Below are positions 11,184 to 31,851 of a stretch of 64,000 nucleotides of DNA, in pieces. Source of the stretch: Dehalococcoidia bacterium (lineage in GTDB: Bacteria; Chloroflexota; Dehalococcoidia; Plut-88900); NCBI GenBank assembly GCA_965197645.1, contig OZ240219.1, forward strand, positions 1,696,001-1,760,000, written 5' to 3'. Positions within the stretch are counted from its first letter, which is position 1. Each line of letters starts with the position of its first letter. Below the pieces are notes generated by a model. That model saw only the letters and a program-made list of their open reading frames with translations, made no database searches and was not told the origin of the DNA. Both the position numbers and the translations under genes were made by a program.

Positions 11184-13601
11184 TTGTTCTCTATTCTCAG
11201 ACTGTTAAGGTATTTGCCGAAGGGCAACGCCCTTCGATTGCTGATAGTAGGCGTGATCTTCGTCCTGGGGCTCATGGCCTTGGCGTTCAACGACCTTTCC
11301 CCCTTTGGCATCGACCGGCAGGGGTTCAGGCAAGGGCTGGACATACAGGGCGGGAGCCACCTGGTGTACGAGGCCCGAGCCGACGAGGACGGGGATATCA
11401 ACGTTACACAAGCCCAGATGGAGGGAGTTGCCAGAATCATCCGCAGGCGGGTGGATGCCTTCGGAGTCGCAGAGCCCATAGTGCAGCGGGTCGGCGACCA
11501 TCGGATCATGGTCCAGATTCCCGGAGTAAGGGACGTGGAGAGGGCCAAGAAGCTGATCGGCGCCACGGCCCAACTGGACTTCCGGGAGCAGAGACTTCGA
11601 GAAGACGGCACCCCCGTTATCGATCTGAACGGGAGCATAATCTGGGACCCGGCCATGGGCACCGGTCGCAGCGGGCAGGCGGTGCACCTGACGGGTCAGT
11701 TCATGCTGCCCAACTCCCAGGTGATCGTTGATCCCACGACGAACCTGCCCAACGTGGCGTTTCAGCTCAATGGCGATGGAGCCAGGCTCTTCGAGCAGAT
11801 CACCGAAAGGCTTCTCGGCCAGCCCCTGGGAATCTTCCTGGACGATCTCTTGATTTCCGCTCCCACCGTTCAAGCGGTAATCCGTGAAAACGGTGTGATT
11901 AGCAACCTCAGCTTGGACGAGGCGGAAGACCTGTCCATTGAGCTTAACGCAGGCGCCCTGCCCATACCAATAGAGCTCATCCGGGAGCAGGACGTGGACG
12001 CTACGCTGGGGCAGGAATCGGTGGACAAGAGCATGGTGGCCGCGGTGATTGGCCTGCTGGCCGTGTTGGTCTTCATGATGCTCTACTACCGTCTGCCCGG
12101 AGCGTTGGCGGCGTGCGCCCTGGTGATTTACGGCATCGTGGTGCTTTGCTCCTTCAAGCTGATACCCGTCACCCTGACCCTATCGGGTCTCGCAGGGTTC
12201 ATACTCTCCATCGGTATGGCGGTGGACGCAAACATCCTGATATTCGAACGTCTGAAAGAGGAGCTCAGGTCCGGAAGAAGTTTGAGAGCCGCCGTCGAGG
12301 CCGGATTCAACCGTGCCTGGCCGGCTATCCGAGACAGCAACGTGTCCACCCTGCTGACCTGCGGCATCCTGTTTTGGTTCGGCGATAAGCTGGGTACCCC
12401 GCTGGTGACCGGGTTCGCAGTGGCCCTTGCCATCGGTGTGGTTACCAGCATGTTTACGGCCATGTTCGTAACCCGCAGCTTCCTCCGGTTCTTCATCGGC
12501 CCCAACCTGGAGACCAAGCTGCATTACTTCAACGTGGACAGAAGAGTTCAAAACGATGAAGACCGAGAGGCAGCGCCGGCGGTCGGCAGGTTGGAGAACA
12601 CCCGGCTAAATCTGGTGGACCGGCGGATGTGGTACATCATTATCTCGGCGATAGTGATACTGCCCGGTTTGATGTCCCTGATCTTTCCACCGGCCTTCAA
12701 GCTCGGCATCGAGTTCTCCTCCGGCGCCACTATAGAGGTATCGTTCATCAATCCCCAGGACGTCGGGCTGCGGAGAGAAGCCCAGGTAACCACCTCGGCA
12801 ATCAGGGACGAGGTAGCCAACCTCGGGCACGGGGACGCCATCGTCCAGAAGCTGGGGTCCAACTCGTTCCTCATTCGAACGAAGGCACTGGCCTCCGGGG
12901 AGCTGGACGATCAGGGCAACGTGGGTCCATCAGAGAGCGAGATGATCAAGAATGCCCTGGAGAGGAGATACGGTCCAACCAGCATAGACAAATTCGAGAT
13001 ATCCTTCGTCTCGGCGATTGTAGCCGCGGAATCGGTGCGCAACGCGGGCATCGCAGTCCTCGTGGCTATATTGGGCATCTTCGTGTACATCGCCTACGCT
13101 TTTCGCAAGATGCCCCACTTCTTCCGGTATAGCTTCGCCGCAATCATCGCTCTCTTCCACGACGTGATCATCATCCTCGGGCTCTTCTCCATCTTGGGCA
13201 AAGTCATCGACATGGAGATCAGCACCATGTTCATCACCGGGCTGCTGGCGGTGATCGGCTACAGCATCAACGATACCATCGTAGTGCTGGACAGGGTGCG
13301 AGAGAACGTTCAGAACCGGGCGGGCGAGAGCTTCGAGCAGATAGTGAACAACAGTCTCCTGGAGACCATGGGCCGATCTATGAATACCAGTCTCACGACT
13401 GCGTTCATGCAGATATCTCTGCTGGTCATAGGCGGCGCCACGCTAAAGCCCTTCATCCTCGTCCTGTTTATCGGTACAATAGTCGGGACGTATAGCTCTA
13501 TCTTCATCGCTACGCAGCTGCTGGTTATCTGGGATAAGCAGGAGTTCGGGCAGCTGTGGCGCAGAGTGCAGGTCAGACTGGCCGGAGCCAGGGAAAACTA
13601 G
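11184..13601 (+). CDS. secDF: Fused protein translocase subunit SecDF
   Basis: SecD motifs GLDIQGG, GMAVDANILIFER; SecF motifs GIEFSSG, GYSINDTIVVLDRVRE in one ORF; start codon uncertain. Confidence 0.92.
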   Translation: MFSILRLLRYLPKGNALRLLIVGVIFVLGLMALAFNDLSPFGIDRQGFRQGLDIQGGSHLVYEARADEDGDINVTQAQMEGVARIIRRRVDAFGVAEPIVQRVGDHRIMVQIPGVRDVERAKKLIGATAQLDFREQRLREDGTPVIDLNGSIIWDPAMGTGRSGQAVHLTGQFMLPNSQVIVDPTTNLPNVAFQLNGDGARLFEQITERLLGQPLGIFLDDLLISAPTVQAVIRENGVISNLSLDEAEDLSIELNAGALPIPIELIREQDVDATLGQESVDKSMVAAVIGLLAVLVFMMLYYRLPGALAACALVIYGIVVLCSFKLIPVTLTLSGLAGFILSIGMAVDANILIFERLKEELRSGRSLRAAVEAGFNRAWPAIRDSNVSTLLTCGILFWFGDKLGTPLVTGFAVALAIGVVTSMFTAMFVTRSFLRFFIGPNLETKLHYFNVDRRVQNDEDREAAPAVGRLENTRLNLVDRRMWYIIISAIVILPGLMSLIFPPAFKLGIEFSSGATIEVSFINPQDVGLRREAQVTTSAIRDEVANLGHGDAIVQKLGSNSFLIRTKALASGELDDQGNVGPSESEMIKNALERRYGPTSIDKFEISFVSAIVAAESVRNAGIAVLVAILGIFVYIAYAFRKMPHFFRYSFAAIIALFHDVIIILGLFSILGKVIDMEISTMFITGLLAVIGYSINDTIVVLDRVRENVQNRAGESFEQIVNNSLLETMGRSMNTSLTTAFMQISLLVIGGATLKPFILVLFIGTIVGTYSSIFIATQLLVIWDKQEFGQLWRRVQVRLAGAREN

Positions 13602-13611
13602 GGGGTAGGAA

Positions 13612-14487
13612 ATGAGAGAGAAGCTGATTCCGCTGGAGCAGGTCAGCAAGCTGGTCCGGGACGGAGACCAGGTGCTGATGATGGGCGGCATGGAGTTCAC
13701 GCCCATGGCCGTCCTGAGAGAGATAGTCAGAGCCGGGGTCAAGGACCTCCACACCGTCGGAGTGGTAGGCGGGGCCATGAACCTGGACTTCCTCATCGGG
13801 GCCGGCGTCACAAACACCGTCGAAACCTGCGACCTGAGCCTGCCCCCGTATGCTCGGGTGGCTCCCAACTACCTGCGATACCAGAAGGCCGGCCGGGTCA
13901 AGATGAAGGACAACACCTGAGGGATCATGTACAGCATGGTCCAGGCTGGATCAATGGGAGTCCCCTTCGTGCCCACCCTTGGATACGCGGGCACCGACAT
14001 CCTTGAGCGTAGAGAGGACTTCAAGGTGATTCCACACCCCTTCGCGGAGGGTGAACGGATTGTGGTCGCCGAAGCCATTACCCCGGACGTGGCCCTCTTC
14101 CACGGCCCCAGGGCCGACAGGTTCGGGAATGTCCTGGCCGCGAATACGGGAGAGGCGCTGACACTGGCGCTGGCCTCCCGCAAGGTCATAGTCTCCGTCG
14201 AAGAGATTGTTGACGAGGTATCACCTCACGACCACGCCGGAGAGTACATACCCGCCCTGAACGTTACCGCGGTGGTGCATGCTCCCTTTGGGGCGCACCC
14301 CACCGGATGTCCCGGTTTCTACGAAGAAGACGTGGCCCACGTACAAGAGTACGTGGAGGCCTCGGCCTCCGACGATGCCTTCTCCGGGTACTTGGAGAGA
14401 TACGTCTTCGGCCCCGGGAGCCACGACTCTTATCTTGATAGGGTCGAGTTGAAGACCGAGGAGAAGGTGCCGGGACCGGTAGGTTAG
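13612..14487 (+). CDS. Family I CoA-transferase-fold alpha subunit (GctA/IpdA-like), probable selenoprotein with in-frame TGA at 13918-13920 (residue 103 of 291)
   Basis: ORFs 13612-13920 and 13927-14487 are in the same frame, joined by TGA-GGG-ATC; together they give one full-length alpha subunit (VRDGD, PDVALFH..RADRFGN, VSVEEIV, APFGAHPT). Confidence 0.8.
13921..13965 (+). promoter_or_regulatory. Putative bacterial SECIS hairpin
   Basis: CAGC 13932-35 pairs GCTG 13945-48; inner TG/CA closes a GUC loop 19 nt after the UGA; GATC/GATC or GGGA/TCCC lower stems. Confidence 0.5.
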
Positions 14488-15233
14488 TGTCCACTACCGG
14501 CGCCGACTGCAAACTGGAAGAGTACCTAGCGGTCCTCCTGTCGCGGGAGGTGCGGGACTTCGAGACCTCCGCCTGTGGAGCGCTCTCCTTCATACCGGCG
14601 GCCGGCCTGATCCTCGCCGAGTCTACTCACGCCTCTCACGGGGAGTACATCATCCTCGGCAGCCCGGCTTACCAGCCCTTCGCCTCTCCCAAAGACTTCC
14701 ACTACTTGGCCCAACGCGGGCAGATGGACCTGTTCTTCATCGGGGCAATCGAGATCGATAAGAGGGCGAATTTCAACCTCCACCTGATCGGTGACCCCGA
14801 CGAGCCGGATGTCCGGATGCCCGGCGGATACGGTACGGGCCTGCTTTACTACGCCGTGCCTCGCATCGTGCTGTTCCGTACCAAGCACGACAGGCGGACG
14901 TTCGTGGAAGAGGTCAATTTCGTGTCGGGGGCCGGCACGTCCCCCGAGGGGATAGCCAGGCGAAACCGAGAGGTCAGGGTGATCACACCGATGTCGATTA
15001 TGGAGCTGGACACGGAGACCCGTCTGCTAAAGCTGGTCTCGATACATGCCGGATACACCCTGGACGACGTTCAGGCAAACACTGGATTCGATCTGGGAGT
15101 GGACGGCGAAGCTCCGGTGACGCCTCCACCGACGAACGAGGAACTGACGAGTCTTCGTACCGTAGCGAAGCAGCGGATGATCGAGAGCGATACCTACGCC
15201 GATCTGGCCAGGTCTCTGATCAGAGAGCCCTAG
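14487..15233 (+). CDS. Family I CoA-transferase-fold beta subunit (GctB/IpdB-like)
   Basis: GAIEIDKRANFN, RMPGGYG, RTFVEEVNFVS, VQANTGFDL; GTG start overlaps alpha stop. Confidence 0.85.
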   Translation: MSTTGADCKLEEYLAVLLSREVRDFETSACGALSFIPAAGLILAESTHASHGEYIILGSPAYQPFASPKDFHYLAQRGQMDLFFIGAIEIDKRANFNLHLIGDPDEPDVRMPGGYGTGLLYYAVPRIVLFRTKHDRRTFVEEVNFVSGAGTSPEGIARRNREVRVITPMSIMELDTETRLLKLVSIHAGYTLDDVQANTGFDLGVDGEAPVTPPPTNEELTSLRTVAKQRMIESDTYADLARSLIREP

Positions 15234-16326
15234 CCCGTCTCAACCAGCTTTCGTCGAACCCGGGGCCGGTGTAGACGTTCTTGAGGGTGCGGACCCTTTC
15301 GATCCGCTCTTCAGCCAGCCGGTCTGCGGCTTGGGCCGTGGTCACTCCGTCCGCCTTGGACTTGGCTATGACGTTGGTCATCGTATCGTACACGTTGGCG
15401 GTCATGTCCATGGCGGCTTCCCGGCTGTAGCCCCCTATCTCGCACGCCACGGTTATGATCCCGCCGGGATTGATGGCGTAGTCCGGGGCGTAGAGAATTC
15501 CCGCATCGTGGAGCTCTTTGGCGTGCTCATCTTCCAGGAGCTGGTTGTTGGCCGCTCCGGCGACGATGGGGGACTTGAGCCGGGGTATTGTGTCGCTGTT
15601 TAGGACTCCGCCCAGAGCGCAGGGGGAGAAGATATCGCACTCTACGTCGTAGATATCATCAGGGCTGACTATAGTGGCGCCCATTTCGGAAGCCATGGCT
15701 ATTCGACCCTCGTTAATATCGGCGGCGATGATGTGAGCGCCTTCCTCTTTCAGGTACTCGGCGAAGCTGTAGGCGACCTTGCCGAATCCCTGTATTGCTA
15801 CCGTCTTACCCTCCAGCGAGTCTGAGCCGAAGACCTCTTTGCAGCAGGCCTGAGAGCCTTTGTAGATTCCATAGCCGGTGATCACCTCTGCGCCACCCAG
15901 ACCGCCCCGGGCCTCGGGCAGGCCCGATGCGTAGGGCGTCTCCTTCCGGACGTTGACCAGGTCGTCCACCACCGTACCCACGTCTTCAGTGGTGAGGTAC
16001 CGGCCGCCCAGGGTGTTGATGAATCGACCGTGGGCGCGGAACAGAGCTTCGGTCTTATCGGTGTTGGGGTCGCCGATGATGAGGGCTTTGCCGCCGCCCA
16101 GGTCCAGTCCGGCGAGGGAAGACTTGTAGGTCATGGCCCTGGCTAGGCGAAGTACGTCGAGAAGGGCCTCTTCTTCGGTGGCGAAGGGCCACATGCGGGT
16201 GCCGCCACAGGCCGGGCCCAGGGTGGTATCGTGAACGCAGATGAGGGCTTTCAGCCCCGCTTCCTTGTCGGTATAGATGGCCAGCTCTTCGTACTCGTAC
16301 TGGCCCATGTAATCGAAAATCTTCAA
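15220..16326 (-). CDS. Leu/Phe/Val dehydrogenase
   Basis: LGPACGGTR, MTYK, LGGGK, EDVGT, GFGKV, GAANNQL; converges on and overlaps the beta subunit by 14 bp. Confidence 0.92.
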   Translation of the reverse strand: MKIFDYMGQYEYEELAIYTDKEAGLKALICVHDTTLGPACGGTRMWPFATEEEALLDVLRLARAMTYKSSLAGLDLGGGKALIIGDPNTDKTEALFRAHGRFINTLGGRYLTTEDVGTVVDDLVNVRKETPYASGLPEARGGLGGAEVITGYGIYKGSQACCKEVFGSDSLEGKTVAIQGFGKVAYSFAEYLKEEGAHIIAADINEGRIAMASEMGATIVSPDDIYDVECDIFSPCALGGVLNSDTIPRLKSPIVAGAANNQLLEDEHAKELHDAGILYAPDYAINPGGIITVACEIGGYSREAAMDMTANVYDTMTNVIAKSKADGVTTAQAADRLAEERIERVRTLKNVYTGPGFDESWLRRARAL

Positions 16327-29988: not shown

Positions 29989-31851
29989 TTGTATGTCATA
30001 GGCACAGCGGGACACGTAGACCATGGGAAGTCGGCGCTGGTCCAGGCGCTGACCGGCATCGATCCGGACCGGCTCCAGGAGGAGAAGGAGCGGGGCCTGA
30101 CCATCGATCTCGGGTTTGCCTGGTTGACCCTGCCCAGCGGGCGTGAGGTCAGCATCGTCGACGTTCCAGGCCACGAGCGATTCATAAAGAACATGCTGGC
30201 CGGTGTGGGAAGCATAGACCTGGCCCTGCTGGTTGTTGCCGCCGACGAGGGGGTCATGCCCCAGACCCGGGAGCACCTGGCCATAGTCGATCTGCTCAGG
30301 ATCGACCGCCACCTGGTGGTGATTACAAAAAAGGACCTCGTGGAGGACGACTGGCTGGAGCTGGTTGAGGCCGATATCCAGGACGCCATCGAGGGGACGA
30401 GCCTGGAAGGGGCACAGATAATGGCGGTCTCGTCGATCACGGGAGACGGGCTGGACGACCTGGTGGCTGCCGTCGATGGCATGCTGCAAGAGGCGACCCC
30501 GAAGCAGGATATCGGCAGGCCGAGGCTGCCCATCGATCGCACGTTCACCATATCGGGATTCGGGACGGTGGTAACGGGTACGCTGATAGATGGCAAGCTG
30601 ACCGTCGGGCAGGAGGTCGAGGTCGTTCCGGGAGCGATAAAGAGCCGCATCCGGGGCATCCAGACCCACAAGAACAAGGTGGAGGTGGGGTCTCCGGGAT
30701 CGAGGGTGGCGGCCAACATATCGGGAGTGGGGCACGCGGAGATACGCAGGGGCCAGGTCCTCACTTCTCCCGGCTGGCTCAGAGAGAGCACCGCCGTTGA
30801 CGTTCGACTACGGATCATCCCGGATTGCCCCATCTCGATAAGACATAATGCCGCGGTGACCCTTCACATGGGCACCAGCGAGACGCCGGCCCTGGTGAGG
30901 CTGCTGGACTCGCAGGAGCTGGAGCCGGGCGCCGAGGGTTGGGCCCAGCTGCGGCTCCAGGACCCGATCGCCTTCATCAAGGGAGACCTGTTCATCATCC
31001 GGTCCCATCTGGGGACCCTGGGGGGCGGCGAGGTGGTAGAGACCCAGCCAAAACGGCACAAGCGTTTCCACGACAAGACCGTGGAGCGGCTGGAGGTGCT
31101 GGCTCAAGGTACTCCTGGGCAGGTGTTGATCAAAGTGCTGGAGTCCTCGGAGCCGCTTTCGGTGAAGAACCTCGTTCGAATAAGCACTCTCGCCGAGGAT
31201 ACGGCCAGGGAAGCCGTGCGGGCCCTGCACGAGGAGAAGGGGATAGTGGTGCTGGGAAAGGATGGACTCCAGGGCAATCCTCTCCTTTATTCCTATGCGG
31301 GGTGGCAGACTGTCAGGGAGAACAGTGAGGAGTACCTGCGGGGATACCACGAGCAGAACCCGCTGCGGCCGGGGGCGCCCAAGGAGGAGTTCCGCGGCAG
31401 GTTGAAGCTCTCGGCCCAGGCCTTCCCCCAGGTAATGGAGCGGCTGAAAGAGGAGGCAGTAGTCGTGGAAGAGGGTGCATCGGTGAGGCTACCCTCTCAC
31501 ACCCGGACGGTTAGCCAGGGCCAGCAGCAGGAGATAAACGCCTATCTGAAGGCGCTGGCCGGCAATCCCTTCTCGCCACCGACGGATATATCGATACTGC
31601 CGGAGCTGCTGTCAGGCCTGGTGGAGGAAGGCAAGGTGATCCGGGTCAGTGGAGACGTGGTCTTCGAGGCCGGTGCCTATCAGAAGATGGTCGACCAGGT
31701 GGTAGAGGAGGTGAGAGCGGAGGGCAAGGTGACAGTGGCGAGGGTAAGGGATATGTTCAAGACCAGTCGCAAGTACGCGCTGGCGTTTATGGAGTACCTG
31801 GACCAGGAAAAGATCACCCGTCGGGTCGGGGACGACAGAGTGCTGAGGTGA
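29989..31851 (+). CDS. selB: Selenocysteine-specific elongation factor
   Basis: [28 protein letters not shown]-terminal winged helices ending SRKYA..LEYLD..TRRVGD. Confidence 0.95.

Follow-up and report, generated by a model that had tools for sequence, protein, structure and literature searches.

The 64,000-nucleotide stretch of DNA that was analysed here (the window) spans positions 1696001-1760000 of contig OZ240219.1, from a single-contig Dehalococcoidia genome of 3.21 Mb with 60.8% G+C (assembly GCA_965197645.1), and the element of interest is a gene at 13612..14487 on the + strand that seems at first sight to be broken by a stop codon. Two open reading frames (ORFs) share the same frame there, an upstream one of 102 aa that ends on TGA (13612..13920, +) and a downstream one of 186 aa (13927..14487, +), and nothing separates them apart from TGA-GGG-ATC, as had been described in an initial annotation, which proposed that a selenoprotein is hidden in this place. 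When the TGA at 13918..13920 (+) is translated as selenocysteine (Sec, U), the only internal TGA of the gene disappears and a single frame of 291 codons including Sec103 emerges, which is closed by a TAG stop at 14485-14487 and encodes the anticipated 291-residue read-through protein with U103 within KMKDNT-U-GIMYSMVQAGSMGVPFVP. The next gene (14487..15233, +, 248 aa) has a GTG start that shares one base with this TAG. Both products match the Pfam family CoA_trans (PF01144), with E 1.2e-18 and 4.5e-13, respectively, and are referred to hereafter as the alpha and beta subunits of an alpha/beta enzyme resembling glutaconate coenzyme A (CoA)-transferase. No NCBIfam model scored above its cut-off (TIGR02429 reached 36.1 bits for a cut-off of 128.5, and NF007394 29.6 for a cut-off of 315), and the sole Rfam match at gathering thresholds in the whole window was a tRNA. 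As developed below, 13612-14487 is very probably one intact gene, whose UGA at 13918 is decoded as Sec by SelB and tRNA-Sec via a hairpin, and whose product is one half of an alpha/beta heterodimer.

The residues that homologues carry at the Sec position are telling. A search of a protein collection returned 1134 clusters at E <= 1e-10, and the homologue figures given here concern the best 120 of these 1134. Among them are 43 full-length homologues, in which the column aligned with residue 103 holds Cys in 41 cases, Glu in two (P0115 and P0119) and Trp or Arg in none, in line with the statement, in the initial annotation, that related alpha subunits have Cys at this point in a D-x-T-C-P type motif. 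The local motif around Sec/Cys reads [DE]-x-[TA]-[C/U]-[GP] (DATCP, EHACP and DNTCG are examples), and an acidic residue three positions before the Sec column was seen, by eye, in every homologue row. The other 77 clusters, all below 230 aa in length, align from query residues 105-115 onwards, which means that gene callers restart just past the TGA. The expectation that standard pipelines would call this gene split is thus borne out by 77 of the 120 best database matches, all of them fragments that begin beyond the TGA.

The TGA is not a peculiarity of this assembly. In a set of 41 genomes (the window's own and 40 relatives, each represented by its best match), the match contains exactly one internal TGA in 14 genomes from six genus codes (G000, G001, G003-G011, G015, G016 and G036), at identities to the query that range from 100% down to 37%. 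In all 14, hence in 14 of the 21 loci that were aligned from the 41 genomes, this TGA stands at the residue-103 column, which is occupied by G, H, C, N, N, S and Q in the remaining seven. A second survey, which scanned one genome per species, returned 53 named loci, 52 of which cover the column, and the codon found there is TGA in 47, TGC in one and AAC or AAT in four; these loci having been found with peptide patterns derived from the subfamily, Sec forms make up a smaller part of the whole family than 47 of 52 suggests. According to their record titles, the named TGA loci come from Dehalococcoidia/SAR202/Chloroflexota, SAR324, Lambdaproteobacteria, Methylomirabilota, Binatia, Myxococcota and Planctomycetota bins. 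The two samples, which overlap in part, together provide 56 distinct Sec-type proteins, and the alpha family is common in uncultured marine and subsurface bacteria. Three of the bins (L077, L084 and L088) are titled 'uncultured Enterobacteriaceae bacterium', a label that is probably wrong; their Sec-type genes cluster tightly with those of Binatia and Methylomirabilota. As for this particular TGA, contigs of two further studies cover 13500-15300 at 95-99% identity, and the differences listed for them, beyond which there are 22 more, include none at 13918-13920 and none in 13889-13988.

The same alternation of Sec and Cys is apparent in a maximum-likelihood tree of 111 proteins, inferred by a 'quick' method with branch support from the Shimodaira-Hasegawa-like approximate likelihood ratio test (SH-aLRT) only, after identical proteins were merged and loci whose match does not cover query residues 20-250 were left out. 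One clade of 90 rows (SH-aLRT 99), made up of 56 Sec and 34 Cys forms, takes in all the Sec and nearly all the Cys forms, and the two states are interleaved within it, with at least seven changes of state, four of which are forced by well-supported branches. Such interleaving is usual for a selenoprotein family. The placement of the long branches L013, L014, L015 and L019 is of low certainty.

A hairpin that resembles a selenocysteine insertion sequence (SECIS) lies inside the coding sequence at 13935..13956 (+), as defined by cross-genome comparison. Its 9-bp stem pairs 13935-13943 with 13947-13956, leaving a bulge at 13953 and an apical loop GGC at 13944-13946, and since the core stem starts 17-19 nt and the loop 23 nt past the TGA, it fits the hairpin with a G-starting apical loop that had been placed 19 nt downstream. 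The distance limits of bSECISearch are 16-37 nt. When the 48 nt from the TGA onwards were aligned for 61 Sec loci (52 distinct rows), the stem occupied columns 18-26 and 30-39, with the bulge at column 36, and standard pairs made up 92.5% of 468 cells, against 14.5-48.1% if the 3' partner is shifted by 1-3 columns. The pair 22-34 is AU in 26 rows, GU in 22 and CG in three. Constraint on synonymous sites provides, in our view, a stronger argument for the hairpin than these pairing statistics: in the upper stem and loop, all 53 distinct Sec contexts use CAG for Gln, GCT for Ala and GGA for Gly, while the flanking Gly codons (+3 and +39) and the nearby Val and Pro codons take three or four synonymous forms, and the bulged base, which is the wobble position of a Ser codon, is variable. 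Codon choice at these frozen sites is different in the Cys locus L078 and in the Asn-type paralogues. In L013, L014 and L015, which are distant Sec forms, the same loop closes a hairpin with a different stem sequence.

The genome also encodes the machinery for Sec insertion. A tRNA-Sec scores 66.4 bits (cut-off 47) and is called tRNA-SeC with anticodon tca by ARAGORN, selA (547.7 bits) and selD (379.7 bits) are both above curated cut-offs, and selB, which encodes the Sec-specific elongation factor, is found where it had been reported, at 29989..31851 (+), with 346.8 bits for TIGR00475 (cut-off 242.25, match 29995-31848). The latter acts in trans and is not adjacent to the alpha gene. Across the 41 genomes, selA is above cut-off in 30, including 14 of the 14 with the TGA form, which is to be taken as a mere count since these genomes are related. 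Elsewhere in the genome, TGA terminates 746 of the 2252 open frames of at least 300 codons; it is therefore an ordinary stop that has not been reassigned. The selD gene, which lies outside the window (G000:C1:941844-942767, locus L038), itself encodes a selenoprotein with one in-frame TGA (...HCAG-U-ASKF...), and offers an internal comparison with its hairpin of 8 bp and small GUA loop, 20 nt past that TGA.

Several points count against this reading of the gene. To the biased sampling of the named loci must be added that related genomes are not independent of each other, and that the assignment of Sec rests on sequence comparison. Contigs from RNA libraries cover parts of the alpha and beta genes, and neither the TGA nor the hairpin. 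Covariation in the stem is thin, most pairs being invariant and both sides changing in three of the nine only. The local folding energy of the window sequence is ordinary (z = 0.51, with 136 of 200 shuffles folding equally well), and the minimum-energy local fold is another hairpin directly past the TGA (13922-13942, 9 bp, ACA loop), which overlaps the 5' arm of the conserved stem. This other hairpin is missing from relatives, which have other codons there, and it might either compete with SECIS formation or be due to chance. Folding of the window sequence being unremarkable, the case for a SECIS is a comparative one, not a thermodynamic one. Set against all this, three outcomes could have told against Sec, namely a Trp, an Arg or another residue in place of Cys in homologues, a TGA found in this assembly only or without backing from other data, and a genome devoid of selA or selC, and what was found favours Sec each time: Cys in 41 of 43 homologues, a TGA shared with 13 other related genomes and 47 of the 52 named loci and matched by the contigs of two other studies, and selA, selB, tRNA-Sec and a Sec-type selD all above cut-offs. 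The initial annotation is thus supported in its main proposal. We regard it as highly probable that the alpha subunit would prove to be a real selenoprotein with Sec at its active site, and it is equally probable that the gene is a genuine, widespread and presently mis-annotated selenoprotein gene.

What Sec might do in this protein is best approached through its fold. Sequence matches of alpha in the PDB are headed by GctA (1poi_A, E 2.7e-33), followed by AibA (5mzw_A, E 7e-23) and IpdA (6coj, 6co6 and 6con, E 5e-17 to 3.5e-13). An AlphaFold2 model of alpha based on 24 sequences (mean predicted local distance difference test score 94.1) was also closest to GctA in fold, the Foldseek template modelling (TM) scores being 0.87 for GctA, 0.85 for IpdA and 0.77 for AibA, ahead of canonical AtoD and SCOT. 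Residue 103 is, in this model, the first of a helix (103-115) that comes straight after a strand (97-100), and the N-terminus of a helix is where a reactive Cys or Sec is often placed. The same genome encodes a canonical alpha subunit with the motif VPQG, the Gln of which is aligned with C/U103 by hhalign. In structures, the column holds Gln in GctA, Gly in AibA and Glu in wild-type IpdA of Rhodococcus and Mycobacterium, and since it holds Ala in a chain of the entry titled 'IpdAB E105A COCHEA-CoA complex', the Sec column corresponds to IpdA Glu105, a residue that is said to have been proposed as the catalytic base in a 2018 PNAS paper. A D/E three residues before the column is common to the homologue rows, GctA, AibA and IpdA. 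The Gln of transferases has a known task at this place: Gln110 of TbASCT, the equivalent of Gln99 of SsSCOT, forms a hydrogen bond with the acetate or succinate that is bound next to the Glu-CoA thioester (PMC12817287, in part). Where SCOT thus has an alpha Gln contacting the carboxylate (Gln99), the present family has Sec or Cys. The Sec column is thus, on alignment, one of the active site in every characterised relative.

The second active-site residue of classical transferases sits on the beta subunit. A beta-family ORF is present in 47 of the 49 loci that were compared, directly 3' of alpha in 45 of these, and a profile of 18 betas matches GctB (E 3.8e-26), AibB and IpdB. The ORF chosen as beta in one bin (L069:5328-6077), only 18% identical to the others and seemingly out of frame, which may reflect an assembly frameshift or a wrong choice of ORF, was left out of this alignment. 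The catalytic residue of GctB is Glu54 (PMC5380842, in part), and the canonical betas encoded by the same genome have the Glu of a SENG motif at that position. In the family studied here, hhalign pairs this Glu with a variable column (Pro in the beta of the window; D, K, R, E, T or A in other betas), and HMMER leaves the VESG of GctB as an insertion relative to the beta profile. No conserved beta Cys was found at the former Glu position, where AibB has Cys56; the aligned betas read IILGS or IILDC, with hydrophobic residues, Gly or a variable residue. With no conserved Glu on beta, and with Sec in place of the active-site Gln of alpha, the enzyme is, as far as comparison of sequences goes, likely not a classical CoA-transferase. 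The earlier label 'CoA-transferase alpha subunit' thus stands with regard to fold and family (PF01144), and probably does not stand with regard to classical CoA transfer.

Known systems are instructive both for what they share with the Sec-type enzyme and for what they do not. GctAB of Acidaminococcus fermentans (1poi) ranks first among the matches of alpha, in sequence as in fold, and among those of the beta profile. Its two genes are likewise laid out as an alpha/beta pair, and it shares the GAHPxxC motif and the acidic residue three before the Sec column, but GctA has Gln where Sec is found here, and the beta family here is without a conserved Glu. Two members of the same glutaconate-CoA-transferase-like branch, the hydrolase IpdAB and the decarboxylase AibAB, are not transferases. 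The first of them, which cleaves a ring of COCHEA-CoA in steroid catabolism (6co6, 6con and 6coj), is close in fold and has its Glu105 at the Sec column; its beta lacks the transferase Glu (Gly57 beta), and it showed no CoA-transferase activity (PMC5380842, in part). It nevertheless differs in having Glu rather than Sec or Cys and in being only 25-26% identical, and no steroid ring C/D catabolic genes were seen among the neighbour clusters that were annotated by Pfam, which are the commoner clusters of the 49 loci. In the 3-methylglutaconyl-CoA decarboxylase AibA/AibB of Myxococcus xanthus (5mzw), which is similar in fold (the TM score above is query-normalised, and rises to 0.84 when target-normalised), AibB is a non-transferase subunit in which Cys56 replaces the beta Glu and is implicated in catalysis (PMC7756340, in part). 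Unlike here, that Cys is on beta, the Sec column is occupied by Gly in AibA, and the enzyme is no selenoprotein.

Gene neighbourhood is of limited help, as no conserved operon came out of the 49 loci: besides beta, no neighbour occurs in more than 10. Genes for a family III CoA-transferase and a luciferase-like monooxygenase (LLM) were counted in 10 loci each, for a major facilitator superfamily transporter in seven, for a 2-hydroxyacid dehydrogenase in five and for an enoyl-CoA hydratase in four, while a pyridoxal phosphate enzyme, an amidohydrolase and others are found in few. In the window, the neighbours are housekeeping genes (PriA, Def, CCA-adding enzyme and SecDF). There is also a Glu/Leu/Phe/Val dehydrogenase gene (15220-16326, -) that converges on beta, an arrangement that is kept in four of the 49 loci, all close relatives, and that may be due to chance or to a link with amino-acid catabolism.

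One subgroup of the Sec-type SAR202 loci has its genes arranged as alpha, beta, (GNAT), 2-hydroxyacid dehydrogenase and family III CoA-transferase, and the same module follows a Cys-type (DATCP) alpha/beta pair in Paracoccus denitrificans PD1222 and Cereibacter sphaeroides KD131. In these two species (L095, PD1222 plasmid 1, PDEN_RS22910-22880; L098, KD131 pRSKD131A), the operon consists of alpha (DATCP), beta, a CoA transferase of family III size, a 2-hydroxyacid dehydrogenase, a fuculose-phosphate-aldolase-like protein, an FGGY kinase and an acetolactate-synthase-like enzyme (dependent on thiamine diphosphate), and it is flanked by a divergent ATP-binding cassette transporter and an IclR regulator, so that it looks like a catabolic pathway in tractable hosts. 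Relatives with a Cys-Cys motif, [ED]SCC, are found inside coenzyme M (CoM) alkene/epoxide clusters on plasmids of Nocardioides sp. JS614 (L096, pNOCA01), Xanthobacter autotrophicus Py2 (L099, pXAUT01) and Mycolicibacterium chubuense NBB4 (L100, pMYCCH.01), next to genes for phosphosulfolactate synthase, short-chain dehydrogenases/reductases, an oxidoreductase that is dependent on flavin adenine dinucleotide (FAD) or resembles 2-oxopropyl-CoM reductase, and CoA-ligase-like proteins. To our knowledge, the role of the 'CoA-transferases' in such clusters is unproven. Finally, a paralogous alpha/beta pair with His at the Sec column (L101, on pSymA of Sinorhizobium meliloti, and L017) is another repurposing of the same active-site column, and in S. 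meliloti it adjoins cofC, cofD and cofH (F420 biosynthesis), an F420-dependent LLM oxidoreductase and npdG. Taken together, these neighbourhoods are in keeping with an enzyme acting on a CoA thioester that another enzyme has produced.

The advantage of Sec lies in its nucleophilicity, its leaving-group ability and its redox chemistry, not in proton donation. The present analysis directly shows the signals for recoding, the pairing of Sec with Cys, the fold and the location of Sec in the alpha active-site column, and the following scheme can be proposed on this basis. Alpha would pair with the product of 14487-15233 into a heterodimer of the glutaconate-CoA-transferase-like branch of the family I fold, this pair would bind an acyl-CoA in the interface pocket that is typical of the fold, and the classical Glu-CoA ping-pong mechanism would not be used. 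Sec103 (Cys in relatives) would act as a covalent nucleophile on the substrate thioester or on a beta-keto carbon, and the transient acyl-selenoester or adduct would be resolved by water or a thiol. This covalent role is suggested because the residue is strictly Cys or Sec, because its column is catalytic and because the strengths of Sec lie outside proton donation; we see it as a step that is quite possible while falling a little short of being probable. The substrate is probably a small hydroxy- or oxo-acid, the CoA thioester of which would be made by a family III CoA-transferase.

In its most complete form, the reading that we put forward is that of a selenoprotein family that would be the first in acyl-CoA metabolism and the first with a CoA-transferase fold, in which the beta Glu would have been abandoned and the alpha Sec would act covalently via an acyl-selenoester, for example in thiolase-like retro-Claisen cleavage or in acyl transfer between thiols. 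The Cys-type relatives, including the CoM alkene-cluster 'CoA-transferases' and the Rhodobacterales operon, would perform the same chemistry, and selenium-dependent catabolism of organic acids would take place in SAR202/Dehalococcoidia, SAR324 and Binatia. This is a tentative construction, which is more doubtful than its central covalent step, and the scheme above has points against it as well: the substrate assignment is a guess, beta being the sole conserved neighbour, Sec could be in a redox or ligand role instead, beta aligns weakly around the catalytic Glu (hhalign probability of 71.7%), Glu is present, by eye, in about half of the 18 betas in the column matched by hhalign, and some of these Glu-bearing members might retain residual transferase chemistry.

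Other explanations therefore have to be weighed. The one that survives best, which we nevertheless hold to be unlikely, is that Sec is a centre of redox or thiol exchange, forming a selenenyl-sulfide with CoA or another thiol cofactor without any attack on carbon. Known selenoproteins are mostly redox enzymes (PMC13188914, in part), and FAD-dependent disulfide-type oxidoreductases are encoded next to the [ED]SCC relatives in the CoM alkene/epoxide clusters of Nocardioides JS614, Xanthobacter Py2 and Mycolicibacterium chubuense NBB4, but the Sec-type motif is D-N-T-U-G, with no second conserved Cys by residue 103 and no CxxU or UxxC, no redox partner gene is conserved across the 49 loci, and the fold is one that binds acyl-CoA thioesters. 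Less likely still is a role of Sec/Cys103 as general acid/base or proton shuttle, in a decarboxylase, isomerase or hydrolase of the AibAB/IpdAB type that operates without a covalent intermediate. The closest solved relatives lacking the beta Glu work in this way, Cys56 of AibB being the proposed protonator of the enolate (PMC7756340, in part). Glu105 of IpdA falls in the Sec column, and the upstream D/E is common to the homologue rows, GctA, AibA and IpdA, but the AibB Cys is on beta and not on alpha. Sec is moreover a poor general acid, selenols being largely deprotonated at neutral pH, and the cost of inserting it is usually repaid by nucleophilicity or redox chemistry.

That the enzyme is nothing more than an ordinary family I CoA-transferase, with Sec lining the carboxylate pocket in place of Gln, is improbable. 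Both subunits belong to PF01144 and GctAB is the best structural match, and roughly half of the aligned betas have Glu at the hhalign-paired column, but a catalytic residue should be invariant, and this column varies, with Pro in the beta of the window and D, K, R, T or A in other betas. It would also be odd for a residue that passively lines a pocket to be strictly Cys or Sec in 90 tree rows, at the cost of the Sec machinery, and the co-encoded family III CoA-transferases would make a second transferase redundant. As for a pseudogene, a true two-polypeptide gene, a reassigned code or near-cognate readthrough of the TGA, which the splitting of 13612-14487 by gene callers and an ATG two codons past the TGA in the window might evoke, these can be set aside almost entirely, because decay would not keep a stop in the same column at 37-100% identity across several phyla, nor a constrained hairpin with it, the next ATG of relatives is that of a conserved internal Met109 and not a start at fixed distance, TGA is a common stop in a genome whose alpha gene has exactly one of them internally, and the residue of homologues is Cys, not Trp or Gly.

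If we return to the selenoprotein with its tentative covalent Sec, the question of novelty arises. Table 1 of a May 2026 review (PMC13188914) has no CoA_trans/PF01144 entry among its 119 prokaryotic selenoprotein families and subfamilies, in agreement with the earlier statement that CoA-transferase folds are outside the classic selenoprotein families. Families from that table which likewise show an in-frame UGA, a hairpin downstream of it and Sec/Cys pairing at a catalytic nucleophile, and which were predicted by similar comparative reasoning, differ in fold and chemistry, and none of the 119 acts on acyl-CoA in the present fold. BSepDB was built from previously reported families, and the accessible portion of its main text is without mention of CoA. 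In the accessible portions of the selenoproteome literature (PMC13326102, PMC2398784, PMC1976440, 10.1101/2022.07.06.499078, PMC5736913 and PMC7176365, which include the GOS, Olavius and Haft studies), no selenoprotein with a CoA-transferase fold is described, and their supplementary tables could list a low-confidence candidate. The gene would then stand for a selenoprotein family, and for a catalytic variant of a known fold, that are both new, while its recoding follows the ordinary bacterial mechanism.

If true, this has implications that reach beyond a single gene. Acyl-CoA processing, together with a new fold, would join a selenoproteome that is now dominated by thioredoxin-like redox proteins. 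There would be mis-annotation at scale, some of the fragments going by names such as 'hypothetical protein' or 'CoA-transferase' in SAR202 and Chloroflexi bins, and metabolic reconstructions of abundant uncultured groups would miss the enzyme or mis-score it. The coincidence of the Sec column with IpdA Glu105 and the transferase Gln would provide a concrete handle on a third repurposing of this fold, and the cultured hosts of Cys-type relatives, be it the operons of PD1222 and KD131 or the clusters of alkene oxidisers, would be tractable models for unravelling its chemistry.

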